Shown here: positions 9,483 through 38,562 of the stretch, one piece after another
How positions within the stretch are numbered: the first letter of the stretch is position 1
Layout: every line of letters starts with the position of its first letter
Assembly (NCBI GenBank): GCA_031372565.1
Contig: JANMLN010000020.1
Span: forward strand, 37,484 to 101,483
DNA: 64,000 nt
Source: Gemmatimonadota bacterium
GTDB lineage: Bacteria > Gemmatimonadota > Gemmatimonadetes > Gemmatimonadales > Gemmatimonadaceae
Direction: 5' to 3'
The notes under the pieces: model-generated
The model's input: only the letters and a program-made list of their open reading frames with translations
The model's database searches: none
What the model was told of the DNA's origin: nothing
Made by a program: the position numbers and the translations under genes

Positions 9483-10441
9483 GCGCTGCGCCCGAACTCC
9501 TCTACAATACGAGCTCGCCGACCGAGCGGCTGCGTGACGCGGTCGAGGACGGCCTGCGCACGCGCCCGCGCACACTCCCCGCGGCGCTGCTCTACGACGC
9601 CCGCGGTGCCCGGCTGTTCGAAGCGATCTGCGATCTGCCCGAGTACTACCCCACGCGCACCGAACACGCGATTCTCGCGCGCCACGCGGGCGACATCGCC
9701 GACCTCATCGGTCCGCAGGCCGTGATCATCGAGCTGGGGAGCGGCGCCGCCACCAAGGTGCGTCACCTGCTGCCCAAGCTGGTGCAGCCGGGAGGGTATG
9801 TGCCGGTCGACGTCTCGCGCGAGCAGCTGCTGGCGGTCGCCGCCGAGCGCGCGCTCGAGTTTCCGCATGTCCCAGTGCTCCCCGTGTGGGCCGACTTCGC
9901 GGACGAGCTGACGCTGCCGCTCATCACCGATGACGCGCGTCGCGTCGCCTTCTTCCCGGGCTCCACCATCGGGAACCTCGAGGCCGGCGACGCAGCGGCG
10001 TTCCTGCGTCGGGTACGCGAGATGGTCGGCGACGCGGGCGGCCTCGTGCTCGGCGTGGACCGGCGCAAGTCACCCCAGTTGCTGCACGCCGCTTACAACG
10101 ACGCGGCGGGCGTGACGGCGGAGTTCAACCTGAACGTGCTCTCGCACGTGAACCGGGAGTTTCGGGGCACGTTCAATCGCGGGGCGTTCCGGCATCGCGC
10201 GTTCTTCAACGGCGCCGAGAGCCGGATCGAGATGCACCTCGAGGCGGTATCGCCGCAGCATGTGCATGTCGCGGGGCTCTCGATCGACTTCGCTGCCGGA
10301 GAGAGCATTCGCACGGAGGTGTCGGTCAAGTACGACCGGTCGCGTCTCGATGTGCTCGCGGCCACTGGAGGATTCACGGTACACACGCTGTTCACCGACG
10401 AACGCGACTGGTTCTGGGTCGCGTGGCTCGTGCCTGTCTGA
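9479..10441 (+). CDS. egtD: L-histidine N-alpha-methyltransferase EgtD
   Basis: LYDARG.RLFE.IC.LPEYYPTRTE, ELGSG, FPGSTIGN, AYND..GVTAEFN, IRTEVS.KY; ATGA-coupled to egtB. Confidence 0.95.
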   Translation: MSAAPELLYNTSSPTERLRDAVEDGLRTRPRTLPAALLYDARGARLFEAICDLPEYYPTRTEHAILARHAGDIADLIGPQAVIIELGSGAATKVRHLLPKLVQPGGYVPVDVSREQLLAVAAERALEFPHVPVLPVWADFADELTLPLITDDARRVAFFPGSTIGNLEAGDAAAFLRRVREMVGDAGGLVLGVDRRKSPQLLHAAYNDAAGVTAEFNLNVLSHVNREFRGTFNRGAFRHRAFFNGAESRIEMHLEAVSPQHVHVAGLSIDFAAGESIRTEVSVKYDRSRLDVLAATGGFTVHTLFTDERDWFWVAWLVPV

Positions 10442-10760: not shown

Positions 10761-12169
10761 CCGGCGCGCCGGTGCTCGTCGACGCGGTGGTCATCGGCAC
10801 GGGGCAGGCCGGTCCGGGACTCGCGACGTCGCTCGCTGGCCTCGGCGAGACTGTCGTCATCTTCGAGGGAGACCGGATCGGCGGTAGTTGCGTGAACGTC
10901 GGTTGCACGCCGACCAAGACGCTGCGCAAGAGTGCGCGCATCGCGCATCTCGCGCGGCGGAGCGCCGACTTCGGTGTGCACACCGGTGAGGTGCGCGTGG
11001 ACTTCGGCGCCGTGATGACGCGCATGCATGCGGTGGTGGGCAAGAGCACCGCCGGGCTCACGGGGTGGTTGGGTCGCACGCCCAACCTCGCGCTCGTGCG
11101 CGACTGGGCGCGCCTCGATGGCCGCGCGGACGACCGGTTCGTGGTGCGTGCGGGTGCCGCCACCTATCACGCGCGCCACGTCTATCTGAACGTCGGCACG
11201 CGGCCTGCACTTCCTTCCATCCCGGGCCTCGCGGAGGCCAAGCCGCTCACCAACGAGACGCTGCTCGACCTCACCGAACTGCCGGCGCATCTGGTGGTCA
11301 TCGGCGGCAGCTACATCGGCCTCGAGTTCGCGCAGCTCTTCCGTCGGCTCGGCAGCGCGGTGACCGTGCTCGAAGCCGCGCCTGCGGTCGCCGCACGCGA
11401 GGATGCCGATGTGTCGGCGCGCATCGCGACGATTCTGTCGGATGAGGGAGTGGCCGTGCACGCGGGGGTACGCATCGTGTCGGTGGCGCGCACTGGGGAG
11501 GGGGTCACCGTCTCGCTGGTGCCTGCCGGCGCGAGCGAGCCGGTTGTGGTGACCGGCACGCACCTGCTCGTTGCGACCGGGCGCGTTCCGAGCACCAAGG
11601 GGCTCGGGCTCGAGACCGTGGGAGTGGCCATGGACGCTCAGGGCTACGTCCCTGTGAATGGCGCACTCGAGACAAGCGTGCCAGGCATCTTTGCGCTCGG
11701 CGACGTCAACCGTCGCGGCGCCTTCACGCACACGTCGTACCAGGACTACGAGATCGTGCTGGCCAATCACACTGGCGGCGATCGCACCGTCGAGGGACGG
11801 GTCAGCACCTACGCGATGTACACCGACCCGCCGCTCGGCCGCGTCGGCATGAACGAAACTGACGCGCGCGCAGCGATGTTAAGCGGACGGCGCTTCCTGC
11901 AGGCGACATTCGAGATGGCGAACGTGTCGCGGGCGAAGGAAGAAGGGGAGACGCTCGGCATGATCAAGGTGCTCGTCGACGCCGAGACGCACCGGTTCGT
12001 CGGGATCACGATGCTCGGGATCGGCGCCGATGAGATCGTGCAGGTAATCGGTGCGCAGATGGCGGCGGATGCGCCGTACGAGGTGCTGCGCGACGCGCTG
12101 CCCGTACATCCGACGGTGACGGAGTTCTTTCCGACGATCTTGAAGAAGCTCGCGCCGCTCGGCGGCTGA
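10757..12169 (+). CDS. Pyridine nucleotide-disulfide oxidoreductase, MerA/RclA-like
   Basis: GTGQAG, GGSCVNVGCTPTK redox disulfide, GGSYIGLE, HPT..E; no C-terminal Cys pair; GTGA overlap with DUF427. Confidence 0.88.
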   Translation: MTGAPVLVDAVVIGTGQAGPGLATSLAGLGETVVIFEGDRIGGSCVNVGCTPTKTLRKSARIAHLARRSADFGVHTGEVRVDFGAVMTRMHAVVGKSTAGLTGWLGRTPNLALVRDWARLDGRADDRFVVRAGAATYHARHVYLNVGTRPALPSIPGLAEAKPLTNETLLDLTELPAHLVVIGGSYIGLEFAQLFRRLGSAVTVLEAAPAVAAREDADVSARIATILSDEGVAVHAGVRIVSVARTGEGVTVSLVPAGASEPVVVTGTHLLVATGRVPSTKGLGLETVGVAMDAQGYVPVNGALETSVPGIFALGDVNRRGAFTHTSYQDYEIVLANHTGGDRTVEGRVSTYAMYTDPPLGRVGMNETDARAAMLSGRRFLQATFEMANVSRAKEEGETLGMIKVLVDAETHRFVGITMLGIGADEIVQVIGAQMAADAPYEVLRDALPVHPTVTEFFPTILKKLAPLGG

Positions 12170-12220
12170 GCGGCGGCGGACGGGGAGGTGCGAGTGAGCT
12201 GATTGGTCCGCATCAGTGGA

Positions 12221-12646
12221 TCAGAGGTCGCCTCGCCCGAGCACGATGCCCTTGTTGGCGTTTGCGCGCATGAACGCCTGATACGCTCGGAAGCCGCCGA
12301 GCTCGGCGATATCCACAAGCTTGTCGCCCGGGGTGATGCGATCGGGTACAAGGAGCATCGCGTTCACGCGCTCACCGTCCTCCAACTCGATCTCGCTCAG
12401 TGCCAACTCGCGCGGTTCGCCTGGCAGCAGTTGATCACGCAGCACGTGCTCGGGCATGTCGTAGAGTTCGCCGACGATCATGCGGCCACCGTGGTCCACG
12501 GGAAAGAGGCCGGGGAATTCGTCGCGCAGGACGAAGAACCGGTACTTGGCGGCGGTACGTGCCGGGCCGAGGAAGGCCGAGCCTGCGAGGCAGCCGTGGT
12601 CCTTCTGGCCGGACATGGCGGTGCCGTTGAGGAACATCTTGGGCAT
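12221..12646 (-). CDS. Gamma-glutamylcyclotransferase-like / allophanate-hydrolase C-terminal-like protein
   Basis: MFLNGTAMSG, FLG.ARTA..YR, IVGELYD, EP..L motifs. Confidence 0.75.
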   Translation of the reverse strand: MPKMFLNGTAMSGQKDHGCLAGSAFLGPARTAAKYRFFVLRDEFPGLFPVDHGGRMIVGELYDMPEHVLRDQLLPGEPRELALSEIELEDGERVNAMLLVPDRITPGDKLVDIAELGGFRAYQAFMRANANKGIVLGRGDL

Positions 12647-13051
12647 TCTGGCAGGCCTCCAATTGGAGCGGGGCGGTCTGTAGACGAACACGAGGTACTC
12701 GGATGCTCTCCCGAGCCCGCATTGAACTCGTGCATCGAGAACCGGATCCCGCTGAACCCGAACTCCGCGAGCGTCGCCAAGAACTGCCGCCGATCATCGC
12801 CTGACGTGCGCATGACAGTACCGTCGCCGAGGGAGGTCGCCGAATGCACGACGGGACGCGACTCCGTGAAGCTGCAGAGGTACGGTGACGGCCGCAACCG
12901 ATGGCGCCGAAGCGTCCCGCGAGTGAATGTCAGAAACTTTGCAACATCAGGCGTTGTTCTACTCACGAGGGAAGCGGGCGGCGTGCTCACCATGGTGCAC
13001 CGTAGGCCCCGCGAGTCATCACGAAGCGTGCGGACCTTCTCACAGTCACAG

Positions 13052-15511
13052 ATGGAGCCCTCCGCCGATCATTCCGTAGCCTCACCTCCTGAGCGCGCCG
13101 TGCACATCCGATCATCACTCCTCCCGGCACATCTCGCCGAGCGCATCCACGCACCACCCGCGAACGACGAGGTGCCGCCATCCGGGCAGTACGTCCTCTA
13201 CTGGGCCCGCACCGCCGTGCGGGCGCACGAGAATCCTGCCCTCGACACCGCGATCGGGCTCGGCGCCGCACTCGGCGTGCCCGTGTTCGTGTACCACGCG
13301 CTCTCGGAGCGATACCCGTACGCGAGTGACCGACACCACGTCTTCATCCTCGAAGGCGCACGCGACTTCGCCGCCGAGCTGGCAGCGCGCGGGGTCGGCA
13401 CGGCATTTCATCTGGAGCGTGAAGGCCATCGCGGACCACACCTGATCACGCTCGCACAGCGGGCCTGCGTGGTCGTCACCGAGCTGATGCCGGTAGCCCC
13501 GTTGGCGGCGTGGACGGACCGCGTGCGCTCATCAATCTCCGCGCCGCTCTGGCAGGTCGACACGGCATGTGTCGTGCCCATGACGCTGACAACAAAGGCG
13601 TACGAGCGCGCTTTCGTGTATCGTCAGGCGACCACTGCGTTGCGCGCCGAGCGGGTGCGCCGAGCGTGGCCGGAGCTCACGCCAGTCGGTGCGCCCTTCG
13701 TGCCGGATCTGCCGTTCACTCCCATCGATCTTGCCAACGCCGATATTGCCGCACTGGTCAGCGCGTGCGACATCGATCACGCAGTGGGACCCGTGTCGGA
13801 CACGCGTGGGGGCGCGCGCGCCGGCTACGCGCGCTGGGCCACTTTCGTGGACTCGGGCCGACTCGATCGGTATGACCGTACGCGCAATGACCCCACCAAC
13901 GGCGCTGGCGTCAGTCGCATGTCGGCATACCTGCACTACGGCATGGTCTCGCCGTTCAGGCTTGCACTTGAGGCCGCGGCGCGCTCGTCCGAGGGCGCGG
14001 CGAAGTGGCTCGATGAGCTCCTGGTCTGGCGGGAGCTGGCCTACACCTTCTGCTTCCATCGGCCCGATCACGGCACCATCGACGCCATTCCCGACTGGGC
14101 GCGCGCCACGCTGCAGCGACACGAAGGGGACGCGCGGACACTCTACGCCTGGGAGCAGCTCGCGCGCGGTCAGACGTCGGACCCGTTCTGGAATGCGATG
14201 CAACGGTCGCTGCTCGCGCACGGCGAGCTGCACAACAACGTGCGGATGACATGGGGCAAGGCGTTCAGCGGCTGGACGCCCAATGCCGCGCGCGCCCTGT
14301 CACGCTCCATCGATCTCAATCATCGCTACGCCCTGGATGGACGCGATCCCGGATCGTACGGTGGGCTGCTCTGGTGTCTCGGACAGTTCGATCGCGCCTT
14401 CACACCACCAACGCCTGTCCTTGGCACGGTCCGCGGTCGCCCGACGCAGGAGCAGGCCGCGCGCATCAATGTCGAGAAGTACACGGGTCATGTACAGCGC
14501 GCGGCGTATCGCACTCCTCGCAGGGTGGCGGTGGTCGGCGCAGGACTCTCTGGCCTGATGTGCGCTCGCACACTGACGGATCACAACATCGACGTGACCG
14601 TGTTCGAGAAGTCGCGGGGGTTCGGCGGTCGCTGTGCCACCAGGCGCGACGGACCGTGGCGCTTCGACCATGGGGCGCAGTACTTCACGTCACGCGATCG
14701 CCGCCTCGCGCCGTTGATTGCCAGCTGGCAGCAGCAACAGGTCATCGCCGAGTGGACGGGCGTGTTGGCAACGCATCAAGACGGCCGGTGGCAGCCGGCC
14801 AAGACCGGAGTGCGACGCTGGGTCGGCACGCCGGGCATGAGCGCGATCGGCGCCCACCTCGCGCATGATCTCGATGTGCGGCTCGAGACCCCCGTATCGT
14901 TGCTGCAGCACGAGGGCAAGCAGTGGCGGCTCCTCTCGGACTCGGGCGCCGAACTCGGCGTGTTTGATGCCGTGCTCACCTGCGTGCCTGCGCCGCAAGC
15001 GACCGCGTTGCTGGCAGAGGTGGCCCCTGGACTGGCCGGTCAGGCGGCGCGTGCGATCATGCACGCCACCATGGCCACCATGCTGGTCCTGCCCGAGCGT
15101 CCCGGGTTTGCGTTCGACGGGGCCTTTCTCAACGACGATCCCGTGCTTGGTTGGATCAGTCGTGATGCGAGCAAGCCAGGTCGCGCCGCCGATGAAGCGT
15201 GGGTGCTCCACGGGACTCGCGCGTGGAGCGCGGCGCACCTGGAAACGGACACGGAACAGATTGCGCACCTGATGACCGATGCCTTTCAGCGTGTCATCGG
15301 CACGTCCATCGTGCCCGTCCGCAGTGTCGCCCATCGTTGGAAGTACGCGCTCCCTGATCCTGTCGCCCCCGACGCCGCCCTGTTCGATGCTGGAATCGGA
15401 CTCGGCGCGGCTGGCGACTGGTGCGGTGGGCCGCGCCTGGAGGGTGCGCTGCTCAGTGGAGTGGCGCTGGCCGGTCGCGTGCTGACCTACGCGCAGGCCA
15501 CAACTGTATAG
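13052..15511 (+). CDS. Class II-like DNA photolyase fused to a renalase-like FAD-dependent oxidoreductase
   Basis: YVLYW..AVRAHENPALD, SRMSAYLHYG, WRELAY, HNNVRMTWGK, YALDGRDP; then GAGLSG, EKSRG.GGR.ATRR, FDHGAQYF, GDWC.GPRLEGA. Start uncertain (13052 or GTG near 13099). Confidence 0.85.
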   Translation: MEPSADHSVASPPERAVHIRSSLLPAHLAERIHAPPANDEVPPSGQYVLYWARTAVRAHENPALDTAIGLGAALGVPVFVYHALSERYPYASDRHHVFILEGARDFAAELAARGVGTAFHLEREGHRGPHLITLAQRACVVVTELMPVAPLAAWTDRVRSSISAPLWQVDTACVVPMTLTTKAYERAFVYRQATTALRAERVRRAWPELTPVGAPFVPDLPFTPIDLANADIAALVSACDIDHAVGPVSDTRGGARAGYARWATFVDSGRLDRYDRTRNDPTNGAGVSRMSAYLHYGMVSPFRLALEAAARSSEGAAKWLDELLVWRELAYTFCFHRPDHGTIDAIPDWARATLQRHEGDARTLYAWEQLARGQTSDPFWNAMQRSLLAHGELHNNVRMTWGKAFSGWTPNAARALSRSIDLNHRYALDGRDPGSYGGLLWCLGQFDRAFTPPTPVLGTVRGRPTQEQAARINVEKYTGHVQRAAYRTPRRVAVVGAGLSGLMCARTLTDHNIDVTVFEKSRGFGGRCATRRDGPWRFDHGAQYFTSRDRRLAPLIASWQQQQVIAEWTGVLATHQDGRWQPAKTGVRRWVGTPGMSAIGAHLAHDLDVRLETPVSLLQHEGKQWRLLSDSGAELGVFDAVLTCVPAPQATALLAEVAPGLAGQAARAIMHATMATMLVLPERPGFAFDGAFLNDDPVLGWISRDASKPGRAADEAWVLHGTRAWSAAHLETDTEQIAHLMTDAFQRVIGTSIVPVRSVAHRWKYALPDPVAPDAALFDAGIGLGAAGDWCGGPRLEGALLSGVALAGRVLTYAQATTV

Positions 15512-17860: not shown

Positions 17861-18226
17861 GAGAGAAGTGGGGGCCTGTCAGCACGCTGGGGTGGCGATC
17901 CGCGATGAGCGCCCACGCCAAGGGTCACGGTCTCGAGCGAGCGCATGGAGAGAATAGTAGCGTATCGGCACGCGCACCAACGCGCGAACCGAGTCCCGTG
18001 ACGAGGCAGATCGCCCGTCCGGTCGGGTGCCGGTGGCTTCCCGTGCGCGGTCGCAATGCCCGGCTGTCCGACACGCACACTCGGGGCTGTTCGAGCCTCC
18101 CGAGGACATCCTCCCCCTGCAGACGTCACATGTTTCTTCTTGCGCGGCGCACCGTGCGACCTCAATGTCAACGTGTCGCCAGTCGCACGATGTACGCTCG
18201 AGTTTGTGACCACTGAGCTGACCGCC

Positions 18227-18940
18227 ATGCGCCCGACTCACCCGTTCGTCGCCACGCTCGGCCTGTTGGCGCTCATCGGTACTTCGGGTTGCGCAGATAG
18301 TGCCGCGCCCGGCCAGCCGCCGGCCGGCGCCACGCAGGGTGTCCGCGTCGTCAACGCGTACACCCAGCCCGTTGACGTGCTGGTGGATGGCGCGCTCGTC
18401 GCCTCGAACGTCGCACCGGCGCGCATCGACAGCCTGCCGCAGACCGCTGGCGCGCATACGGTCGCACTCCGCACCTCCGGCACCACCACCATCGTCTCCG
18501 TGCCGGTCCGGACGGTGACCGGCGCGCTGAGCACCATCATCGCGCTCCGCGTCGGCGCCGGGCTCGCCATCAGCACCTTCGATGATACCAACGCCGTCGT
18601 TCCAGCGGGGGCGACCAAGGTGCGCGTGCTGCACCTGGCGCCGAACGCTGGCGAGATCGAAGTGGCCCGCACGCAGCCCGATTGGCTCGCACCACCGCTG
18701 GTTGGATGGAAGATACCGTTCTACTATGACACGCTCATCACGGATCCACTCGCCAACCCCTACTACCAGAGCACGACGGGGACGTGGGATGTGCGCGCGT
18801 GGCGCAAGCCGTCGGAGAACGCCCTTGGGTGGAACGGTGCCACGGCCCGCGTGACCTTCACTCTGGCCAGCGGGGAGAAGCGCACCGTGTTGGTGCTGGA
18901 CGGGGTCGGTGGTGGCATTCGGCTGGAAGTCATCAAGTAG
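18227..18940 (+). CDS. DUF4397-like lipoprotein
   Basis: Lipobox TSGC; VRVVNA and VRVLHLAP..G repeats. Confidence 0.75.
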   Translation: MRPTHPFVATLGLLALIGTSGCADSAAPGQPPAGATQGVRVVNAYTQPVDVLVDGALVASNVAPARIDSLPQTAGAHTVALRTSGTTTIVSVPVRTVTGALSTIIALRVGAGLAISTFDDTNAVVPAGATKVRVLHLAPNAGEIEVARTQPDWLAPPLVGWKIPFYYDTLITDPLANPYYQSTTGTWDVRAWRKPSENALGWNGATARVTFTLASGEKRTVLVLDGVGGGIRLEVIK

Positions 18941-18974
18941 GGGTTGGCACGTTGCAGGCCAGCTCGATGCGGGC

Positions 18975-21900
18975 TCAGCGCACCCCCGCGCACCAACCCG
19001 CCGCCTTGTATCCGCATCGCACGCACGTTGCCGGGTCCACGGCAAGCGACGCGTGGTCGGGCACGGTCCGCTCGGCGGCCGCGACGCGCTCACGCATCGT
19101 CAAGCGCGCCCGATCGGCAGCCCCTGCGACGGTCGCCCCCGTCGCCGTGAACACGAAGTCGAACGATGTGACCGACCGGCCCGAGATGGCCTCCACCGCC
19201 TCGACGTAGGCATCGCGCTGCACGGTGTACTTGGACGCGACGTCGCTCTCCTCGCCCGCCCGCACGCGTCCCGTCTTCACGTCCACGATGGCGACGCCGT
19301 CGCCGTCAGGCGCCGCAAGGTCGATCGCGCCCTCGAGCGCCGAGCCGTCTGGCAGCACCCGCAGGAAGCGCAGCTCGCGGCGCGCGTGTTCGCGACGCGC
19401 CAGGTGCCCGTAGTGACCGGCCAACGCTGCCTCGACCTGCGCGCGAATGGCCGCGCGATCGTCGGGATGCCACCCACGGCCTGGCGCCGCGTCGTCCTCG
19501 TTCCACTCGGCCTCGGCTTGCGACAGCAGCGCGTCGAGCTCGGCCTGCTCATCCGCACGCGCGAGGATCTCGTGAACCGTCGTGCCGAGCTCTGCGGGGC
19601 TCATGCGCGCATCCACCGATTCGGCCTCGCGCTGTGCCTTGACCTTCGACGCGACCTTCGTTGCACCGGCCGACGCGTGCGCGCCGCCCTCCACGTCGCG
19701 CGGCTCGGCGACGCCGAGCAGGTACTTCCACGCGTACCGTCGCTCACACTGCGCGTGCAGCATGAGCGCGGTCGCAGAGTGCCGGAGCCGACCCATCGGC
19801 ACTGCAACGGCGGCAGGCGGCAGCACGATGTCTGCGGTCCCATCGACCAGCGGTGCAGGGGATGTGGGTGGTGCCTTCCTCGCGTCGTCACTCGCGCGGA
19901 CGTCCACCACCGTGAGCAACACCGGATGCGCCTGACCACCGGCACTCGGCACCGTGAGCGTGCCGCTCGTGCTGTCCGCGTCCAACCCGAGCGCTGCGCC
20001 GAGCCATGCGGCGTCTGTTCCCTTGGTGGCCTTGAGCAGCACACCGCTCACGATCAGGCGCGACTTGGCGCGCGTGGCGGCGACGTAGCGCAGCCGCAAT
20101 CGCTCCGCGTCCGCCTCGCGCTCGCCCTCACTCCGGAGTGCCTGTACCACGGGGTCCTGCTCCTGCTTGTCGACCCCGGGCTCAGCGAGCGCGATGCCAT
20201 CGCGTGTGATGAAGAGTCCGTTTGTGCCCCGATCACCTGGCGTGGTGCGCGCCAGGTCCGCCCACACCACGACGTCCCAGTCGAGCCCCTTGGCAGCGTG
20301 GATCGTCGTGATGGTCACGAACGGCTCCTCAGGGCCGACCAGTCGCGCCGGCGACACGTCATCCTCGCGCGCGCGGCGCTCGGCGAGCTCGCGCAGCCAA
20401 CCTCCGATACTCCGGCGCGGATCTTCCTCGAGCAATCGAGCGAAGCGCGCAAGGTTGGCCAGCGCTTGAGCGGCGTCCTCGTCACCACGCAATGCGAGAT
20501 GCGCGCGATAGCCGCCCTCGTCGAGCAGCTGCTCGAGCAGCTGGTGCGCCGGGACGCGATCGAGCCGTGCGCGCAGGCGAGCGAGCAGCGCTCGCCCATC
20601 GGCAAGGCGCATCGCTTCGTCCGGTGCGAGCGTCCACTGTGGCACGTCGGTATCCAGCCCACCGCCTTGGGCGAGTGCGAGCAGCGTCTCGTCGCGCACG
20701 CCGACAAACGGACTCCGCAACACCCCGGCCATGGCCACCGAATCGCGCGGGTCACGCACGGCGCGCAGCGCGAGCATCGCGTCGAGCACCTCGCGCGTTT
20801 CGAGCAGCCCCGCCGAGCGCAGGAAATAGAACGGGACGCCGGCAGATCGGAGAGCAGCCGCAAACGGATCCGCGCTGGCCCGCGCTCGCACAAGGATTGC
20901 CATGTGTCGCCAGCTGAGCGGCGTTCCATCGACGGCGAGCAGGCCGCTCTGCTGCAGCACCTGCAAACGTGCCACGACCGCCGCCGCGTCCACTTCGCGG
21001 ATGCGCTCGGCGTTCGCCGTGGTCTCACCCACTCTCCGCGGCGCGATGATCTCCACGGCCGGCGCATCGCCGACCGCGGGGCGCGTGGGGGTCAGCGATG
21101 CGTATCCGACCTCGTACGGCTTGCGCCCGCCCTCCGGCTCGGCATTCATCGCCGGCGCCATCACGTGGTCCACGAAGGCGAGGATCCCGGGAACCGAGCG
21201 GAACGAGTCATGGAGCGGACAGATCGCCGCGCGCGTCGGCATCGCGGCAAAGCGCTCCTCGACCTCACGCCAGACGCTCACGTCCGCGCGCCGGAATCGA
21301 TAGATACTCTGCTTCGGGTCCCCCACGAGCAGCAGTCGCGTGCCGCGCGGATCGTCCGGCTCGATGCCGCCAATCGCCAGCACGAGGTCGCGCTGCACGG
21401 GGTCCACATCCTGAAACTCGTCCACCACGAGAAGGCGCAGGCGGGCGCGCACGGCCGCCAGCACGTCGGCATCGCGCAGCAGGTCGCGTGTCCACGTCAG
21501 CAGTCGGTCGAAGTCCACCGCCGGCAGTTCGGCAAGCAGATGATCGTGCGCCTCACGGGTGCGCGTTGCCAGCGTGAGCAGCGCGTGCGTCTCGTCGGGG
21601 TGAACGCGAGGCGTCAGCGATGAGAGCGCCTCAAGTCGCCCGCCATCCGCGGCCAGCACTTCGAGCCAGCGCGAGACCACGTCCACCGCGTACGTGGCCA
21701 GCACGGTGCCCAAGCCGGGAACCTCGTTCGTTTCGAGCGCCTCGAGCAGCGTTTCGCGTGCGGCCGCAGCGAGCAACTCGCGCGCTTCACCTTCGAGCGC
21801 GAGCCGGCCAGGTGCCCGGCGCGCACCGCGGAGACCGAAGCCGCGCAGCAGCTCGCCCGCAAACCCGTGAATCGTGCCGATGCGTGCGGCATCCACGCGC

Positions 21901-22178
21901 TCGGCCAAGTCCGCGCGTCCTGCCGTGGTGAGCGCATCGCGCAGACTGCGCACGAGTTCGGCCGCCGAGGCGTTGGTAAAGCTGATCGCCGCCACCTGCT
22001 CGAGCGTGAGCGGAGCAGGGAGGGCTCCCGCTCCCGGAACCTCGACGCCCAACCGGTGCAGCAGGGCGCGCACGACGGTGAACGTCTTGCCGGAGCCCGC
22101 TCCTGCGGACACGAGCACGTGACGGTCGAGCGAGTCGAGGATCGCGCGCTGCTGGGGGCGAAGCACGGGCGGCGTCAT
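18975..22178 (-). CDS. addA: AddA/AdnB-like UvrD-family helicase with C-terminal PD-(D/E)XK nuclease
   Basis: AGAGSGKT, VDEFQD, VGDPKQSIYRFR.AD, TIHAAKGL, YVAATRAK, GAID...VDVKTG...Q..Y, terminal CxxC..C. Confidence 0.9.
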   Translation of the reverse strand: MTPPVLRPQQRAILDSLDRHVLVSAGAGSGKTFTVVRALLHRLGVEVPGAGALPAPLTLEQVAAISFTNASAAELVRSLRDALTTAGRADLAERVDAARIGTIHGFAGELLRGFGLRGARRAPGRLALEGEARELLAAAARETLLEALETNEVPGLGTVLATYAVDVVSRWLEVLAADGGRLEALSSLTPRVHPDETHALLTLATRTREAHDHLLAELPAVDFDRLLTWTRDLLRDADVLAAVRARLRLLVVDEFQDVDPVQRDLVLAIGGIEPDDPRGTRLLLVGDPKQSIYRFRRADVSVWREVEERFAAMPTRAAICPLHDSFRSVPGILAFVDHVMAPAMNAEPEGGRKPYEVGYASLTPTRPAVGDAPAVEIIAPRRVGETTANAERIREVDAAAVVARLQVLQQSGLLAVDGTPLSWRHMAILVRARASADPFAAALRSAGVPFYFLRSAGLLETREVLDAMLALRAVRDPRDSVAMAGVLRSPFVGVRDETLLALAQGGGLDTDVPQWTLAPDEAMRLADGRALLARLRARLDRVPAHQLLEQLLDEGGYRAHLALRGDEDAAQALANLARFARLLEEDPRRSIGGWLRELAERRAREDDVSPARLVGPEEPFVTITTIHAAKGLDWDVVVWADLARTTPGDRGTNGLFITRDGIALAEPGVDKQEQDPVVQALRSEGEREADAERLRLRYVAATRAKSRLIVSGVLLKATKGTDAAWLGAALGLDADSTSGTLTVPSAGGQAHPVLLTVVDVRASDDARKAPPTSPAPLVDGTADIVLPPAAVAVPMGRLRHSATALMLHAQCERRYAWKYLLGVAEPRDVEGGAHASAGATKVASKVKAQREAESVDARMSPAELGTTVHEILARADEQAELDALLSQAEAEWNEDDAAPGRGWHPDDRAAIRAQVEAALAGHYGHLARREHARRELRFLRVLPDGSALEGAIDLAAPDGDGVAIVDVKTGRVRAGEESDVASKYTVQRDAYVEAVEAISGRSVTSFDFVFTATGATVAGAADRARLTMRERVAAAERTVPDHASLAVDPATCVRCGYKAAGWCAGVR

Positions 22179-22185
22179 GGCCGGC

Positions 22186-25100
22186 TCACCACTCACCGGT
22201 CTTCGGGCCGCCCACGATGCGGCAGCTATCGAGCGCGACGCACCATGACGGGCAGTGATGCGACTCGGCCGGCGTGGGAGGGAAGGGGCCGGTGCGCGCG
22301 CGCACGATCGTGCGGGGAATGGCGTCTCGCGATGCGGCGAAATCCGCGTGACCGCCAAGCTCCGTGTCGAGCACCTTCGTCTTGTGATGCACTTCCGCGA
22401 GATTGATCGGAAGGACGGCCTTCCCCGTTCGCAGACTGCGGTACTCGATGCGCGCGATCTCGATGCCCGGCTCGAGGTGTTGCAGCGCCATTGCGTAGAG
22501 CGGTGCCTGTAGCACGATGCCGTCGGCGAACGCGCCCGACTTGCCGCCACCGGGAGCGGCGCCAGTCGAGCTCTTGTAATCCACGATGACGCGCCAGCGA
22601 CCGGGCTGTGGGATGCGATCATCCGTCACCACGTCCACGCGATCGATGCGGCCGTGCGCGCGGAAGCGAACGTCACCGACCGCCAACGTCATCGGACCGA
22701 ACGCGACCTCATGACGGTCCGCTCCCGCGTGTAGCGGTCGTCGCGACTGCCAGCTCTTGCCGGTGACCCACTTGTCGTGCTCCTCAGCCTCGGCTTCGAT
22801 GTATGCCGTGAGCGTTCGCAACCACTCCGCACGGCGCGCGCCCTCAAGCCCCGGCGCACCCATCCATGTGCCCGCCGCCTCTGCCTCATACGCGGCGTCG
22901 AACGCGGCACGCAGCGTGTCACGCACTCCGGCAAGATCGGCCGTCTGGAGAAACACCGGACGCGCCTGCTCCGCGCGCAGCCGGTCGAAGAATCGGGCCA
23001 GCGCGTCGTGCAGCACCTTCCCGCGCACCGTGGCCGCCACGTCGTCGTCCGGCTCCTCGACGCGCTCGAGCTTGAGGAGCCGTTGTGCGAACCAGGCATG
23101 CGGACACTTCGCGAGCCCCTCGAGCGACGTCGGACTCCACGTGTACGACTCGCCGTGCTGCGTTGCCAGCCACGCGCGGATGTCGACGTGCTCGATCTCG
23201 CCATCGTACGCGCCGCCGCTGCCCGTGAGCCGGGCGCGCTCGATCGCTGCCCCATGTGCACCCCGTGCGACAGCCGCGCGATGGGGCGCGAGCGGGTAGG
23301 CCGGCACGATCACGGTTGATGCGCGCATCCGGTCTGCCACGATGCTGCCACCCAGTCGCGTCGCCTCCTCGAAGAACGACGACACCACCGTCGCGCACTG
23401 TGCGTCGTCCTCGCGACTCCAGCTCAACACGAGCGACGATCTGGCGGACGCCACGAGCGAACGGAACAGTTCACGCTCGCGCTCCTCCCACGCCGTGCGA
23501 CGGTCCAGCGGCAGCCCGGCCGCGACCAGCGCGTCCCGTTCCTCGTCGTCGAGCACGATCCCCACCGGGCGACGACGCGGAAAGTGCCCCGCCTCCAGCC
23601 CGAGCACGAAGACGTGATCGAATCCCCGGTATGCCGCGGCCAGTGCCTCCGCGACAACGACGCCGTGGACGGTCGGCGACGCGAGCACGATGTCACCCGT
23701 CAGCACCGCATCGCACAGCGGCAGGAACCCGGCCGCGTCGATCAGGTCGGGCGGAGCATGCCGCGTCACGACGGCGCGCCAGCTGCGCACGGCCTGTCGA
23801 AGGAGCGTCCATCCGCGGATGTCCGCACGCGCGCTGGTGAGGTCATCCACCGCAGCCTTACGCGCGTGCTGCTCGAGCGTCCACGGATCGTCCGTGAGGA
23901 AGCCATCCAGCCACGCGAGCCAATCGCTCAAGGAACGCTCGCCGTCGAGGGCCGACGCAAACGCGGCGAACCGCTGGATACCGGCCTGCGCATCCGTCAC
24001 GCGCGCCGTTGCTGGCAACGGATGCCGGCGCTCGTCTTCGTCGCGTGGTGCAGCACCCGTGTCGCGCGCGGTCGCCCGCGCGAGCAGCGTCGCGTGCGCC
24101 GAGCGCCAGCCAGCCAGCCCGTCGACCCGACGCTCGAAGCCCAGGCGATTGATCACCAGTGGGTCCAGCTGGCCTGCTCCATACGGATGCTCGGCCAGCT
24201 CCACCAACGCGTGGCGCGACCAGCCTTCTGCCGCCGCCTCCAGCAATTGCCGCACGATGCGAACGACCGGTACCTCCGCCAGCGACACACGCTGACGCGT
24301 CGTCACCGGCACGCCCATGCGCGCAAGTGCGGGGGCCATGCGATCCACGAACGGGCGGGCTTCCCGGGCGACGACGGCGATGCGGTGCGGCGGAACCCCG
24401 CCGTCCACCAGCGCACGAACGTCCACCGCCACGCGCTCGATCTCGCGCCGTGGATCCGGCGATTCGAGCACGCGGAGCTGAGGCGCAACTGTCGCGGGCG
24501 GCTCCGCGCCTGCCGCAAAGAGAGCGCGCGCCATGGTCGTCTGGTCGCCCACGGACTCGTGTGCGTCAGGCGTGATGTCGCTGTCCGCCGAGAAGAGATC
24601 GGCGTGCATCGTGTACACCGCGACACGCTCGAGCGTCGTGTTCGCTCGCAGCACCCGCAGCAACGCGCGCCATCCGCCCCGAAGGTCCATGAGGCCGACG
24701 ATATGCAGTGTGCGGCGGGCCCCGAGAACCCGCGCGAGCTGGTCAGCGTCGTGTGCCAGAGCGCCGGCTGCCGCCGCGAGCGCATCGCGACCATCGCGCC
24801 GTCCCGCATCGACCAGCGCTGCGCGATAGCCCTCCCAGGCGGCAGCGATCTCTGCGTCGCGTCGCTCCTGGAAGGCATCCCGGTGTGCGTGTGCCTCACA
24901 CGCCGCACGGAACCGGTCCGGCATGATCCCTTCGGCCGCGAACTCGCCGAACAGTGCATCGGCCTCGCGCACGGTGAGCGACAGCCGATCCGGACGTCCG
25001 AGAATCTGCGGGGCGCGGTGGCGCAGCACTTCCTCGATGATCACCGTGCGTTCGATCGCGTCGAGGGCGGGGAGCAGCGTCGGATGCAGCACCTGTGCCA

Positions 25101-25323
25101 GCTCCGCGAACACGCGGATCTCCGGATCGAACCACCCCGCGACCCCACGCGCGCTCGCCATCCGCAGCAGGTCGTCGCGCAATCCGCCTTGCCGAAGCAC
25201 TAGCATCGTGGCCGGAGCCGCGAACGGATCGCTCGTCGCGAGCGGCGGGGCGAGATAGTCGCGCGCCGCGTCCGCGAGGAGTGCGTGCGGGTCGGTGCCG
25301 GTAACGAGAACGAGGTGCGCCAT
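22186..25323 (-). CDS. addB: AddB-like subunit: degenerate helicase plus Fe-S PD-(D/E)XK nuclease
   Basis: No Walker A; IAVVAR, FVLGLEAGHFP, SPTSLE...CP, GRIDRVD, VDYKS, LQAPLY, CPSWC...C; adjacent and co-oriented with addA. Confidence 0.87.
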   Translation of the reverse strand: MAHLVLVTGTDPHALLADAARDYLAPPLATSDPFAAPATMLVLRQGGLRDDLLRMASARGVAGWFDPEIRVFAELAQVLHPTLLPALDAIERTVIIEEVLRHRAPQILGRPDRLSLTVREADALFGEFAAEGIMPDRFRAACEAHAHRDAFQERRDAEIAAAWEGYRAALVDAGRRDGRDALAAAAGALAHDADQLARVLGARRTLHIVGLMDLRGGWRALLRVLRANTTLERVAVYTMHADLFSADSDITPDAHESVGDQTTMARALFAAGAEPPATVAPQLRVLESPDPRREIERVAVDVRALVDGGVPPHRIAVVAREARPFVDRMAPALARMGVPVTTRQRVSLAEVPVVRIVRQLLEAAAEGWSRHALVELAEHPYGAGQLDPLVINRLGFERRVDGLAGWRSAHATLLARATARDTGAAPRDEDERRHPLPATARVTDAQAGIQRFAAFASALDGERSLSDWLAWLDGFLTDDPWTLEQHARKAAVDDLTSARADIRGWTLLRQAVRSWRAVVTRHAPPDLIDAAGFLPLCDAVLTGDIVLASPTVHGVVVAEALAAAYRGFDHVFVLGLEAGHFPRRRPVGIVLDDEERDALVAAGLPLDRRTAWEERERELFRSLVASARSSLVLSWSREDDAQCATVVSSFFEEATRLGGSIVADRMRASTVIVPAYPLAPHRAAVARGAHGAAIERARLTGSGGAYDGEIEHVDIRAWLATQHGESYTWSPTSLEGLAKCPHAWFAQRLLKLERVEEPDDDVAATVRGKVLHDALARFFDRLRAEQARPVFLQTADLAGVRDTLRAAFDAAYEAEAAGTWMGAPGLEGARRAEWLRTLTAYIEAEAEEHDKWVTGKSWQSRRPLHAGADRHEVAFGPMTLAVGDVRFRAHGRIDRVDVVTDDRIPQPGRWRVIVDYKSSTGAAPGGGKSGAFADGIVLQAPLYAMALQHLEPGIEIARIEYRSLRTGKAVLPINLAEVHHKTKVLDTELGGHADFAASRDAIPRTIVRARTGPFPPTPAESHHCPSWCVALDSCRIVGGPKTGEW

Positions 25324-25332
25324 GACCACGGT

Positions 25333-25354
25333 ACGTTACCGGCGGGCACTGACA
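25333..25354 (-). promoter_or_regulatory. PafBC-type (RecA-NDp) promoter for addB-addA: TGTCAG-N10-TAACGT
   Basis: Minus strand reads TGTCAG tgcccgccgg TAACGT accgtggtc ATG, matching the mycobacterial TGTCRG-N10-TANNNT consensus. Confidence 0.75.
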
Positions 25355-25392
25355 CTGGCGAGCGCCCCGCGCTGCCCGCCCGCCTTGCGCCC

Positions 25393-25414
25393 CGTCAGAC
25401 CCCGCCCCCAATCT
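25393..25414 (+). promoter_or_regulatory. Degenerate PafBC-type promoter for the WYL pair: CGTCAG-N10-CAATCT, 6 nt before ATG
   Basis: Same spacing as the addB site, with one mismatch in each hexamer. Confidence 0.45.
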
Positions 25415-25420
25415 CCCCGC

Positions 25421-26539
25421 ATGCCCTCGGCCAACAAGACCCAGCGCTGGCTCGACCTCATAGCCGCCCTGCTCGCACGTCGCTATGGCGCCAGCTTCGA
25501 CGAACTCACCGAGCACGTGCCCGGCTACCGTCACGATGGCTCGACCAAGGCCAAGGAATCGGCCAAGCGCACCTTCGAGCGCGACAAGGATGAACTCCGC
25601 GCCTGCGGCGTGCCGCTCGAGTCACAGGTGGCCGCCGGCAACGAGGACGAACCCGACGCGCACCGCTATCTCCTCCGCTCCACCGATTTCTACCTCCCGC
25701 TGATCAGCGCGACGCTCGACGGCGCGACACCGGGCAGTGTTGCCATACCGAAGCGCCCACCTCGCGGCATCGGGTACGCCGGCTTGGGCGTGGTCGCCCT
25801 CGCCTTCGACGAGCTCGAGGCCATGGCGCGTGCCGGCGACCGAGCCCGCAACATCGGCGACCCCGTGCTCGCGATGGAGGCGGAAGACGCGCTCCGCAAG
25901 CTCGCGTTCGACCAACCGCTGGCCGTCGCCACCGATGGTACCGTGCACATCGCCGCCGCGACGCCGAAACCCGCACGCGACGTGCAGGCCGCCGTGAGTG
26001 ACGCCCTGCGGCGGCGCAAGCGCCTGACCTTCGACTACCACTCGATCGGACGCGACGCCCACGGCAGACGCACCGTCGAGCCCTACGGCCTCGTGCTGCA
26101 GATGGGCCACTGGTATCTCGTGGCCCGCGACACCGACGCCGACGCGCTCCGACTCTTCCGACTCGGGCGCATGCGCGCCGCCAAGGTGCGTGCGCAGCAG
26201 CCCAACTCCGCCGACTACGAGGTGCCCGCCGACTTCGACCTGGCCGAGCAGGCACGCTCGCGCGAAGCGTGGGAACTCGGTGACGCCGAAGCCGTCGAGG
26301 TGATCGTCCGATTCCGCGCTGTCACGGGCGCTGTGCGACCAGCGATCGCGCTGGGCACACCGGTGCGAGGGCGCGCAGGCCATCGCCGCTTCCTGGTGCG
26401 GCGCCCCGACGCCTTCGTGCGCTGGCTCCTGTCGTTCGCGGGCGCCGCGGCGCCCGTATCGCCCGCTGCCGTCGTGCGCGAATGGACGTCGGTGGTGGCC
26501 GCGACGACCAAGCTCTATGCCAACGCGGGGCCGGCATGA
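25421..26539 (+). CDS. pafB: PafB-like HTH-WYL-WCX transcriptional regulator
   Basis: RWLDLIAALL, KRTFERDKDELRACGVPL (PafB-like FERDK..LR..G.PL), RTVEPYGL, HWYLVA, FRLGRM. Confidence 0.85.
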   Translation: MPSANKTQRWLDLIAALLARRYGASFDELTEHVPGYRHDGSTKAKESAKRTFERDKDELRACGVPLESQVAAGNEDEPDAHRYLLRSTDFYLPLISATLDGATPGSVAIPKRPPRGIGYAGLGVVALAFDELEAMARAGDRARNIGDPVLAMEAEDALRKLAFDQPLAVATDGTVHIAAATPKPARDVQAAVSDALRRRKRLTFDYHSIGRDAHGRRTVEPYGLVLQMGHWYLVARDTDADALRLFRLGRMRAAKVRAQQPNSADYEVPADFDLAEQARSREAWELGDAEAVEVIVRFRAVTGAVRPAIALGTPVRGRAGHRRFLVRRPDAFVRWLLSFAGAAAPVSPAAVVREWTSVVAATTKLYANAGPA

Positions 26540-27528
26540 GCGACGCACTTGCCGTCTTCCGCCGCCTGCTTGCCCTCGTGCCCCTGCTTGGCGACGAGGA
26601 GGCGCACCCGATTGAAGAGGTGGCCGCGAGCATCGGCGCCGACGCCGACACGGTGCTCCGCGAGCTCATGGCCCTGGGCGAGCGCGCCGATGATCCCGCC
26701 GGCTTCATGGCCGGGCTCACCTTGCACGTCGAGGCCGCGCCCGGGATGCGCGTCCAGGCCCGCTCGCCGCACCTCAAGCGCCCGATGCGTCTCACCTGGT
26801 CGGAGCGCCAGGCGCTTGAGCTCGGTCTCGCCGCGCTGGCGCTCGAACGTCCGCCGACTGAGCAGGCGTCCATCGCGCGTGCGCGCAACCAACTGTCGAA
26901 GCTCGCGACCAAGCCGCCGCGCGACGAACTCGCCACCGAGCGACGCAAGCTGGCCGCCTACAAGGCCTCCGACCCGGGGGTCCTGCGGCTCGTGCAGCAA
27001 GCCGCCCGCGAGAAGCGGGTCGTGGACCTTCGCTACCAGCGAGGCGACGCGTCGGTCGCGGTCGCGCGTGTCGTCCACCCGTACGCAGTCATCCTCGCGA
27101 AAGGCACATGGTACTGTCCGGCCTGGTGCGAGACGGCAAGCGCGCTGCGGATCTTCCGCCTGGATCGCGTGGAGGCCGCCACGGTGCGCAGCACCACCTT
27201 CGAACGCCCCGACGACTTCGATCCCCGGGCCCTCGTGCGGGACGGCCGCGTCTTCCAGCACGACGGCGCCCCCACGATGATCGTGCGCTATTCGCCGCGC
27301 ATTGCGCGCTGGATCGCCGAGCGGGAAGGGCGCGCGCCAGACGCCGACGGCTCGCTGACGCTCGAGCATCCGCTGGCCGACGAGGATTGGGGGATTCGCC
27401 ACGTACTCCAGTACGGGCCCGATGCGGAGGTCATCGGCCCGCCGACGCTGCGCACGGCCATGGCGCGGAAGCTGCGGGCGATCGCGGGGCAACGCGCGAC
27501 GGCGCGCGTCCCCGCGCGACGAGATTGA
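26536..27528 (+). CDS. pafC: PafC-like HTH-WYL-WCX transcriptional regulator
   Basis: RLLALVPLL, RPMRLT..E..AL, RVVHPY, WYC.AWC, RIFRLDRV, LQYGPDAEVIGP; ATGA-coupled to the upstream WYL gene. Confidence 0.85.
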   Translation: MSDALAVFRRLLALVPLLGDEEAHPIEEVAASIGADADTVLRELMALGERADDPAGFMAGLTLHVEAAPGMRVQARSPHLKRPMRLTWSERQALELGLAALALERPPTEQASIARARNQLSKLATKPPRDELATERRKLAAYKASDPGVLRLVQQAAREKRVVDLRYQRGDASVAVARVVHPYAVILAKGTWYCPAWCETASALRIFRLDRVEAATVRSTTFERPDDFDPRALVRDGRVFQHDGAPTMIVRYSPRIARWIAEREGRAPDADGSLTLEHPLADEDWGIRHVLQYGPDAEVIGPPTLRTAMARKLRAIAGQRATARVPARRD

Positions 27529-38400: not shown

Positions 38401-38562
38401 CCCCGCGATATCGGTGGGGAGCACCTTGACCACGACCTCGCGGCCCAGTGCGTTCTCGCGCGCCACGAAGACGCGCGACATGCCGCCACCGCCGAGTTCC
38501 GTGTCGAGCGTGTAGGCGGAGCCGAGGGCTCGCTGCAACTGGTCGCGGAGATCCGTCGTCAC
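35410..38562 (-). CDS. Ser/Thr protein kinase with TM segments, TolB-N/FlgO-like domain and TPR repeats
   Basis: GGGGMS, VVKV, HRDIKPDN, DFG, APE, D.YAFG, then TM helices and TPRs. Confidence 0.92.
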   Translation of the reverse strand: MTTDLRDQLQRALGSAYTLDTELGGGGMSRVFVARENALGREVVVKVLPTDIAGVSVERFKREIMTAARLQHPHIVPRLNAGEIDGVPFFTMPYVKGEGLRQKLRSGGRLGTAEAVRLLRDVASALAYAHSEGVVHRDIKPDNVLLSGGSATVTDFGVAKAIREAAAAPSGDGALTQMGIALGTPMYMAPEQAAADPGVDHRADIYAFGIMAYEMLVGQPPFHGRPAQELLVAQLMEVPVPLDEMRGDLPAELVALVMSCLQKNPDDRPQTADAVVTALDHVTSSGSISGRARLTTVLLGPLASSEPKGGTARRAIGLYLTAAALTAGMARVAVLLFALPDWVFTGAAALLVLGLPLFAVTAWRHRAAANTVTPRGTPAPKIRPTWRQAAVASAGSLVAYGLFVSGFIVLRTLGIGPGASLMAAGKLRDHEQILVADFSSRGTDSSLADVVTEALRTDLRQSKVVTLTQDGTIRLTLQRMQRTSAARLDTSLAREVAQRLGIKAIISGEVQQVGTAYLVIARLTDASSGNELAAFRESAADGAQLIPAIDRLSKKMRERIGESLRELRSDPPLEQVTTASLDALKEYATGVQIIERRGDVREAIGHLEAAIKLDTTFAMAYRKLGIVLSNYGIDRPRGDKLITRALAYGTRLPELEKYLTEATYYMNVANDPEKSLSAYRAALALDPQNLIALNNSAVVLLDQRQPGAAESTLRRQLAQDSSRAQTWSNLAAALAAQGKLGEARNTLLEGRKRIPTAIVLTAQLTGLQFIDGQYDSAAATLSAFEKTMARTPENEATIEQFRTSLDQARGRLGAAAARTRETLRIATQLGMKFTAIDTAAGFALDDVWFRADTAGARRRLDVALAASPLSSLEPARRPYYALAATQTILGRPGLARALIAEHDAVIKDSVTLRAERNDRTMTFGAILAAEGKYAEAIAEMRKGDVGGCTSCALPYIGFTYDLAGQTDSAIAVLDRYRRSPDLNRVRVDPRFLAASLKRLAELYDAKGDAKRALEAYDAFTRLWSDADAEFQPRVKAARARAEQLRNKLGA

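Follow-up and report, generated by a model that had tools for sequence, protein, structure and literature searches.

What does a pair of WYL-domain genes control when it stands head to head with the genes of a break-repair enzyme, outside the actinobacteria? The question is raised by a 64,000-nucleotide stretch of contig JANMLN010000020.1 from a Gemmatimonadota bacterium (assembly GCA_031372565.1), which was analyzed at its full length and is called the window here. The locus consists of two divergent operons with four genes, pafB-pafC on the plus strand and addB-addA on the minus strand, separated by a gap of 97 bp (25324-25420). A sequence-only reading of the window had proposed a PafBC-type response to DNA damage, unlinked to the proteasome, with the regulator, its site and its target in one locus, and this proposal is supported by our comparisons of the subunits, of the motif and of the host. 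We conclude that this is probably a locus for a heterodimeric transcription activator of the PafBC type and for one of the operons that it controls.

In mycobacteria, PafBC acts by sigma adaptation on promoters with the consensus tGTCgg(N10)tA(N3)T (PMC8635444), the expression of adnA depends exclusively on PafBC (PMC8682763), and pafBC is tied to the Pup-proteasome locus, with RecBCD in the regulon (PMC8223512). The consensus with sigma adaptation, the adnA target and the Pup-proteasome locus had all been stated in the sequence-only reading, and the three papers confirm them. PafBC is described there as occurring in "almost every actinobacterial species" (PMC8635444), and both PafBC and the RecA-NDp promoters on which it acts are treated as actinobacterial in the literature; the papers found with the term RecA-NDp all concern Mycobacterium or Streptomyces. 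No paper linking PafBC with Gemmatimonadota or Gemmatimonadetes was found in literature searches that did not extend to subscription-only papers and bioRxiv supplements, in agreement with the earlier surmise that such a response had not been described for this lineage.

Relationship of the WYL proteins to PafB and PafC

Pfam detected a WYL domain in the PafB-like protein (E = 1.1e-22) and, in the PafC-like protein, the HTH_PafC family (40.3 bits, with a gathering cut-off of 32) together with WYL and WCX. When the single sequences were compared with all solved structures, the PafB-like protein matched Mycobacterium smegmatis PafB at 1.8e-18 versus 3e-7 for PafC, and the PafC-like protein matched the PafC half of Arthrobacter aurescens PafBC at 2e-19, M. 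smegmatis PafC at 2.4e-16 and PafB at 5e-6. Family profiles, made from 22 members for the PafB-like and 23 for the PafC-like protein, were also compared with solved structures. The PafB-like profile matched M. smegmatis PafB at 6e-35, M. smegmatis PafC at 2e-14, 6sj9 at 6e-41 and DriD, a WYL activator of Caulobacter crescentus, at about 1e-8. The corresponding values for the PafC-like profile were 1.3e-22 for PafB, 1.7e-39 for PafC, over its full length, 3e-57 for 6sj9, in its C-terminal half, and about 5e-21 for DriD. With both profiles BrxR and CapW, two WYL repressors of phage defence, came below DriD, at 1e-5 to 1e-8.

The AlphaFold model of PafB has a mean predicted local distance difference test score (pLDDT) of 72.3, with a linker of low confidence at residues 91-181. 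Its best fold match in the PDB was 9fnd_X, the PafB chain of the PafBC-RNA polymerase complex (1.1e-16); the TM-scores of the fold matches stayed near 0.3, a low value that several domains joined by a flexible linker would lead one to expect. The single sequences, the profiles and this fold match agree with the earlier assignment of the two proteins to PafB and PafC rather than to other classes of WYL protein, and each subunit appears closer to its own mycobacterial counterpart than to its paralogue, DriD, BrxR or CapW. The homology to PafB and PafC is itself not hidden, as the automatic JGI annotation already names such proteins proteasome accessory factor B or C; the novelty lies in the motif and its conservation, in the set of targets and in how the circuit is wired.

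Residues that contact DNA are largely kept. In M. smegmatis PafB, the arginines R46 and R50 of the helix-turn-helix (HTH) read the two guanines of a GTC triplet (PMC8635444). They align with R50 and R54 of the window PafB, and both positions are Arg in 73/73 PafB-like sequences. The WYL residues that bind single-stranded DNA (ssDNA) are R181, Y196, R204, R208, R211 and R214 in M. smegmatis PafB and R201 and R204 in PafC (PMC11804915). The window PafB has R217, Y232, A240, R244, R247 and R250 at these positions, keeping five of the six; across the family R217, Y232 and R250 are present in 73/73 sequences and R247 in 71/73, and the R244 column holds Arg in 59 and Lys in 14. The PafC counterparts of R201 and R204 are R208 and R211 of the window protein, both without variation in 65/65 sequences. 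A model of the PafB-PafC heterodimer scored 0.74, with 0.00 for the best control, a result that may reflect likeness to the solved PafBC complexes, since such complexes exist. The mark used for heterodimers is reached by 116 of 157 solved complexes and by 2 of 215 mismatched pairs, with alignments made in this analysis; the model runs agree on 59% or more of the contacts, with a partner pLDDT of 73 or above.

The motif in the gap between the operons

The sequence-only reading had seen the sequence TGTCAG-N10-TAACGT as the promoter of addB, and a degenerate copy of it ahead of pafB. The addB-side motif, TGTCAGTGCCCGCCGGTAACGT on the minus strand, was read where it had been placed (25354-25333), and is the single match to the strict form TGTCRG-N10-TANNNT in the 64 kb. 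Its -26 element spans 25354-25349 and its -10-like hexamer 25338-25333. Shuffled windows contained a mean of 0.11 strict matches, and 11 of 100 had at least one. One strict match per window is therefore not rare, and the weight of this one lies in its position within the 97-bp gap and on the strand that points at addB.

The pafB-side motif, CGTCAGACCCCGCCCCCAATCT on the plus strand, is also present as described, but its pattern does not exceed chance in the window: GTCRG-N11-ANNNT has 12 matches for 11.9 expected, and at N10 no enrichment is seen for the class [CG]GTCRG-N10-CAnnnT. The support for this copy is comparative. In L004, the closest relative, which has the same divergent layout and 61-67% protein identity, the 21-mer GTCAGACCCCGCCCCCAATCT (from GTCAG to CAATCT) stands before pafB in identical form while the rest of the gap has diverged. 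The same locus carries a strict motif before addB.

A weight matrix derived from 49 sites of other loci gave its two highest scores in the window, 19.1 and 14.0, to the addB-side and pafB-side sites of the gap, in that order. A third window site beginning TGTCAG, at 41453-41474 on the plus strand, scored 11.9; it lies within the range of the shuffles and is without the final T of the -10, and was not retained. This candidate sits between the genes for Lon protease and a Ser/Thr kinase. No promoter of the sigma-70 -35/-10 type was detected in 25200-25550. Repeats of an operator type were also considered; the gap has a single inverted repeat, which arises from the two motif copies facing in opposite directions. 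Taken by itself the window makes only a modest case for the motif, and the real evidence is comparative.

The motif in related loci

The related loci compared were the best 80 of 581 that were confirmed in species-representative genomes, with 1.11 Mb of DNA. They contain 35 sites of the strict motif, against 2.8 +/- 1.6 in 30 dinucleotide shuffles (maximum 6). Enrichment is found at N10 only, the other spacings from N6 to N15 giving 0-8 sites. Two variants follow the same rule, TGTCAC-N10-TAnnnT with 24 sites (1-3 at other spacings) and TGTCRG-N10-CAnnnT with 42 sites (3-16 at other spacings). The aligned sites show a lineage-specific extension, TGTCA[G/C]ACCCC, and no conserved -35 was found across 50 of them. 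The form TGTCRG-N10-TANNNT that was proposed first is thus conserved but too narrow: the first element may read TGTCA[G/C] or TGTCGG, often followed by ACCCC, and the -10 may be TAnnnT or CAnnnT. The core form TGTC[AG][GC]-N10-[TC]AnnnT has 123 sites, the window's included, of which 22 precede pafB, 14 precede AddB-like genes (13 loci and the window) and 14 precede genes for proteins with a VWA domain. Gene calling was crude; it over-extended several starts and lost several genes, so that its upstream counts alone are underestimates and were combined with other counts.

AddB-like genes have a core motif upstream in 13 of the 18 other loci in which their 5' end lies within the compared DNA (15 loci plus L037, L038 and L069). 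Together with the excess of 35 sites over 2.8, this agrees with the expectation that the motif should be conserved before addB orthologues and enriched. No motif was found upstream of addA in 14 genes, and its absence there and presence before addB fit a promoter ahead of the first gene of the operon. Before pafB, the motif was found within 150 nt of the start in 21/72 loci in the core form and in 25/72 in a relaxed form, compared with 0/72 for control stretches inside pafB. At 12 of these sites 6-7 nt separate the -10 hexamer from the start codon, and in the window this distance is 6 nt. In loci such as L026, L037, L038 and L069 the motif stands before an addB-addA-pafB-pafC operon. A motif in front of pafB or of such an operon predicts positive autoregulation.

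Other genes behind the motif form a mixed set. Single sites precede genes for a RecD-like helicase, a Cas4/AddB-type nuclease, an RNase T-type exonuclease, a RecB-like nuclease-helicase and an SNF2 helicase, and the motif is also found before ARPP-1, HP0729/Pua-like and ADP-ribosylglycohydrolase genes and some unrelated genes. The VWA gene, whose product of about 420 aa has an N-terminal VWA domain, is often the next gene after pafC and is preceded by the motif in 14/19 loci (L025, L028, L030, L036, L038, L042, L043, L051, L058, L061, L066, L068, L074 and L080; for example L042:2803-4050). No copy of the VWA gene is present in the window. The VWA and HP0729/Pua-like proteins gave generic matches only in NCBIfam and the PDB.

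The repair enzyme beside pafB-pafC

The addA product has the Pfam domains UvrD-helicase, UvrD_C and PDDEXK_1, and its best solved relative is Bacillus subtilis AddA (9e-34), followed by RecB (1.5e-21) and AdnB (5e-17). The addB product matches PDDEXK_1 (9.9e-26), and its sole solved relative is B. subtilis AddB (4.3e-5). Against NCBIfam, AddA reached 183 bits with addA_alphas (cut-off 860.75) and 180.9 with addA_Gpos (707.65), and AddB reached 61 bits with addB_Gpos (903.7) and 39.1 with addB_alphas (486.5). As these scores are far below the cut-offs of the curated equivalogs, we call the enzyme AddAB-like. An enzyme of the AdnAB type was considered and rejected: AddB is without a detectable second motor domain, and AdnB ranks below RecB in the comparison with AddA. 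The window proteins share with B. subtilis AddAB (PDB 3U44) the gene order addB-addA, the AddA helicase with a RecB-type nuclease and the C-terminal PD-(D/E)XK nuclease of AddB, but they are very divergent from it.

Gene pairing and distribution of the family

A word-based search for the family returned 888 relatives; in JGI annotation these are called proteasome accessory factor B or YafY, and in NCBI records WYL proteins of Gemmatimonadaceae or Gemmatimonadales. A protein-atlas search with PafB yielded WYL clusters of Gemmatimonadota and no others. Among the 80 related loci, 77 are labelled as Gemmatimonadota lineages, one belongs to a metagenome-assembled genome (MAG) labelled Kuenenia and two bear the label uncultured bacterium. 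The Lon protease of the window is 80-82% identical to Gemmatimonadaceae proteins (11/11 of the matches that carry an organism name), which places the host in Gemmatimonadaceae. The labels of the related loci and these Lon matches indicate that the host is not actinobacterial, as the sequence-only reading had held. Judging from the relatives found, the PafBC-like family would be endemic to Gemmatimonadota; most of its members share less than 50% identity with one another.

The pair is tightly kept. pafC directly follows pafB in 76/76 loci in which the contig continues, and the stop codon of pafB and the start of pafC overlap by 4-11 nt in 48/61 complete pairs. Three more pairs are fused (L011:9998-12010, L013:9977-12136 and L029:9998-12031). 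Fused PafBC proteins make up 49 protein clusters (P0121-P0169) of 699-802 aa and 38-48% identity with HTH_PafC, WYL and WCX; the few that bear an organism name are from Gemmatimonadetes or Gemmatimonadaceae, plus one Cytophagaceae MAG (P0162). Natural PafBC fusions also occur in some actinobacteria (PMC6789036). Both L025, labelled Candidatus Kuenenia stuttgartiensis, and P0162 carry a typical Gemmatimonadota pafBC, with 43-45% identity, and these two labels outside Gemmatimonadota are likelier to be binning errors than true occurrences. L030 has two complete pafBC pairs 6.5 kb apart (4859-6904 and 11417-13457), and L047 has a second pafB fragment at the end of the locus (20539-21054).

No Pup ligase or proteasome family was detected in the 41 window ORFs (open reading frames) scanned, a scan that left out ORFs below 80 aa, the size of pup, nor among the representatives of 29 clusters of neighbour genes, each found in two or more of the 80 loci, where ORFs under 80-100 aa were outside the scan. 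Within this scope, the earlier statement that no pafA, pup or proteasome gene is adjacent holds. Thus pafBC is unlinked to the Pup-proteasome locus here, which is a feature of its context and not of its mechanism. The family owes its name to a position in the Pup-proteasome locus, downstream of pafA, which Muller et al. in 2019 reportedly used to verify PafBC orthologues.

AddAB-like genes lie near pafBC in at least 19/80 loci, in divergent, upstream co-directional, downstream co-directional and convergent arrangements. The recurrent neighbour families are AddA, VWA, AddB, HP0729/Pua-like, RecD, RmuC, RecC and Fpg. The association with the proteasome is absent, then, and an association with break resection recurs. 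In some loci RecBCD-type genes stand in place of the AddAB-like ones, as at L013:1586-4864 (RecC), L027:4059-6083 and L049:8078-9979 (RecD-like). The L049 gene is preceded by a strict motif at a distance of 32 nt, and its end falls just ahead of pafB.

Layout of the window locus

The features of the locus are collected in Table 1. Coordinates and domains agree with the earlier description of two coupled WYL genes, with signatures of PafB and PafC, that diverge from addB-addA over 97 bp. The start of pafC had to be corrected: the list of ORFs placed it at 26482, and the ATG at 26536 overlaps the stop codon of pafB as ATGA (26536-26539). Translated from this ATG, PafC begins just upstream of the stretch that aligns with the N-terminus of the PafC half of A. 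aurescens PafBC. The start of addB at the ATG at 25323 (MAHL) matches the MASL start in L004, and the ATG of addA at 22178 lies 7 nt past the stop codon of addB. An ORF at 17879-19093 on the minus strand was considered as a third gene of the operon, past addA, and rejected; its third-position GC is low (0.67) and it has no relatives in the compared loci.

Table 1. Positions of the genes and promoter motifs of the pafB-pafC and addB-addA operons in the window
Feature	Position	Strand	Description
addA-like gene	18975..22178	-	1067 aa; UvrD-type superfamily 1 (SF1) helicase with C-terminal PD-(D/E)XK nuclease; second in the addB-addA operon
addB-like gene	22186..25323	-	1045 aa; C-terminal PD-(D/E)XK nuclease; first in the operon and predicted to be controlled by the regulator
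addB promoter motif TGTCAG-N10-TAACGT	25333..25354	-	Ends 9 nt before the addB ATG
pafB promoter-like motif CGTCAG-ACCCC-N5-CAATCT	25393..25414	+	Ends 6 nt before the pafB ATG
pafB-like gene	25421..26539	+	372 aa; winged helix-turn-helix (wHTH)-WYL-WCX; predicted DNA-reading, ssDNA-sensing subunit
pafC-like gene	26536..27528	+	330 aa, begins MSDALAVF; HTH_PafC-WYL-WCX

Some further genes of the window and of the related loci deserve a record. In the window, three Ser/Thr protein kinase genes, one with TPR repeats, flank the Lon protease gene (35410-46055), and a single ORF of 1102 aa at 12203-15511 on the plus strand combines a DNA-photolyase domain (residues 331-482) with a flavin adenine dinucleotide (FAD) amine-oxidase-type domain (775-839); it may be a genuine fusion, a pair of genes sharing one frame or an ORF whose start is set too far upstream. 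In 11 related loci an HP0729-family (Pua-like) protein of about 394 aa adjoins pafBC (for example L076:13061-14242 and L060:559-1737), and its gene has the motif upstream in three of the 11 loci, or in four by looser clustering. Genes for ergothioneine synthesis lie at 8205-10441 of the window, one egtB-like (FGE-sulfatase and DinB_2) and one egtD-like (histidine methyltransferase). No motif scoring at least 11 was found upstream of these two genes in the window. The mycobacterial ergothioneine cluster belongs to the PafBC regulon (PMC8223512).

An ADP-ribosylglycohydrolase gene at L073:8793-9839 has the motif ahead of it. The term RecA-NDp is said to occur in Streptomyces papers on the macrodomain hydrolase SCO6735. 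The two together hint at a shared link between the PafBC-type regulon and the removal of ADP-ribose.

Discussion

How would such a locus work? By analogy with mycobacterial PafBC, DNA damage would yield ssDNA, and the ssDNA would bind in the WYL-WCX tunnel. The activated heterodimer would then sit between domain 4 of the housekeeping sigma factor and the DNA, as in sigma adaptation, with the HTH of PafB reading the -26 element and PafC contacting sigma domain 4. RNA polymerase would fire from the -10-like hexamer without a -35, and transcripts would start at the start codon or within a few bases of it. Because its motif ends 6 nt before the ATG, the pafB mRNA may be leaderless. In this way the two divergent sites of the gap would switch on both addB-addA, for resection of double-strand break ends, and pafB-pafC.

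Several points weigh against this picture. The link between the motif and PafBC is one of association and of conserved contact residues, and binding, activation and induction by damage are predicted by analogy with M. smegmatis PafBC. The DNA compared covers the surroundings of pafBC only, without the promoters of recA, uvr or ruv. The first base of the window's pafB site differs from the core, and the -10 of this site is of the CAnnnT class, which is not enriched alone, and the weight-matrix scores of the gap sites are not significant on their own, as ten mononucleotide shuffles reach maxima of 12.2-20.0. Among the contact residues, A240 takes the place of the ssDNA-contacting R204 of M. smegmatis PafB, in a column that is variable. 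D62 of M. smegmatis PafC contacts sigma domain 4 and is Asp or Glu in actinobacteria, the other contacts being to main-chain atoms (PMC8635444); in a profile alignment the PafC column opposite D62 is variable, with Thr in the window, and the window contains no gene for a housekeeping sigma factor. In the related loci, 45/123 core sites precede unrelated singleton ORFs and 15/123 no ORF of at least 80 aa, so that the set is partly noise; only 73/122 sites lie outside DNA called as coding by the crude gene calls, where uncalled DNA amounts to 31%; and the site counts are not independent events, since the loci share ancestry. No core motif was found upstream of the AddB-like gene in 5/18 loci (L001, L010, L021, L056 and L059), L056 having a relaxed form only, and 47-51 of 72 loci have no motif in the 150 nt before pafB.

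How far the regulator reaches can be read in another way. The pair could be a local regulator of the adjacent break-repair operon and of itself, and not the master of a broad regulon. In favor of this, the 64-kb window has only two sites, both of them in the gap, and 50/123 core sites belong to the three gene families that adjoin pafBC. However, the motif precedes several unrelated gene families within about 10 kb of pafBC, and no AddB-like gene was found in 61/80 loci, by tblastn and by a Pfam scan of the ORFs downstream of motifs; in those loci the pair must have other targets. We regard a purely local role as unlikely.

A repressor would also be compatible with part of the data. The pair would then act as CapW and BrxR do, with the motif as an operator over the promoter and ssDNA releasing the repressor. 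Several WYL regulators are repressors that ssDNA releases (PMC11662680), the sites overlap the core promoter region, and induction by damage would look alike. However, the site is non-palindromic and stands at a fixed spacing of 10 nt from a -10-like hexamer without a -35, the layout of a hybrid promoter that depends on an activator. CapW and BrxR, moreover, are single-gene homodimers, and a conserved pair is found here; they match the profiles at 1e-5 to 1e-8 versus 1e-35 to 1e-57 for PafB and PafC. Repression of this kind is highly improbable.

A third alternative assigns the motif to a different factor, for instance an alternative sigma factor or some unrelated activator, and leaves the WYL pair to control something else. 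This would fit the scores of the window motif, which fall within the shuffle range, and a motif-PafBC link by association. It is scarcely credible, however: the motif is the same as the mycobacterial PafBC consensus in GTC core, spacing and -10, the GTC-reading arginines of PafB are invariant (73/73), the motif stands before pafB in 21-25 of 72 loci, and the -35/-10 geometry of sigma-70 family promoters needs more than 10 nt between its elements.

The reading as a PafBC-type activator with a target operon can be set against the known systems. With PafBC of M. smegmatis and Mycobacterium tuberculosis and the fused PafBC of A. aurescens (PDB 7P5X, 9FND and 6SJ9), the Gemmatimonadota proteins share the gene order B then C, the wHTH-WYL-WCX architecture and fused forms; with mycobacterial PafBC they share the conserved GTC-reading arginines of PafB and the ssDNA-binding arginines in both WYL domains; and with the RecA-NDp promoters, their sites share the GTC core, the 10-nt spacing, a TAnnnT -10 and the lack of a -35. 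A two-subunit helicase-nuclease for break resection is among the targets in mycobacteria, and the AddAB-like enzyme is the predicted target here. The differences are as clear. Mycobacterial PafBC is found in Actinobacteria beside pafA and the Pup-proteasome genes, whereas in Gemmatimonadota pafBC is often linked to AddAB-like or RecBCD-like genes. The -26 element preferred here is TGTCA[G/C]ACCCC in contrast to the mycobacterial tGTCgg, and PafB is about 40 aa longer than its mycobacterial counterpart, with an identity of about 24% in the fold alignment. Finally, mycobacterial PafBC levels are described as unchanged on damage (PMC8223512, PMC8682763), while the motif before pafB implies autoregulation here. 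Positive feedback on pafB-pafC appears not to have been reported for mycobacteria.

DriD of C. crescentus (PDB 8TP8 and 9PFQ) is another protein of the wHTH-WYL-WCX type, an ssDNA-sensing activator of a damage response that is independent of SOS, and it binds its own promoter (PMC7617703). It is, however, a homodimer encoded by a single gene, and it anchors RNA polymerase through contacts with the C-terminal domain of the alpha subunit (alpha-CTD) and with beta (PMC13004042), whereas two coupled paralogues are present here. CapW and BrxR have the same domain architecture, and CapW senses ssDNA; unlike the window proteins, they are homodimeric, lie in defence islands and lack a conserved heterodimeric pair.

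A wider proposal can be put forward tentatively, at somewhat less than even confidence: PafBC and the -26 element may be, rather than a proteasome-bound speciality of actinobacteria, the phylum-wide master response of Gemmatimonadota to DNA damage, positively autoregulated, linked to break-resection enzymes and working without polymerase factors specific to actinobacteria such as RbpA, with a link to break repair that is older than the link to the proteasome. The conservation of the regulator, of its contact residues and of the promoter grammar in a Gram-negative phylum would offer an independent test of sigma adaptation outside the context of the actinobacterial polymerase, and a pafBC unlinked to the proteasome would be a natural experiment on what the proteasome link adds. 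With the regulator, two sites and a target within 8.5 kb, the locus would be a minimal system for work in vitro. It may also provide a first handle on the DNA damage response of an abundant soil phylum.

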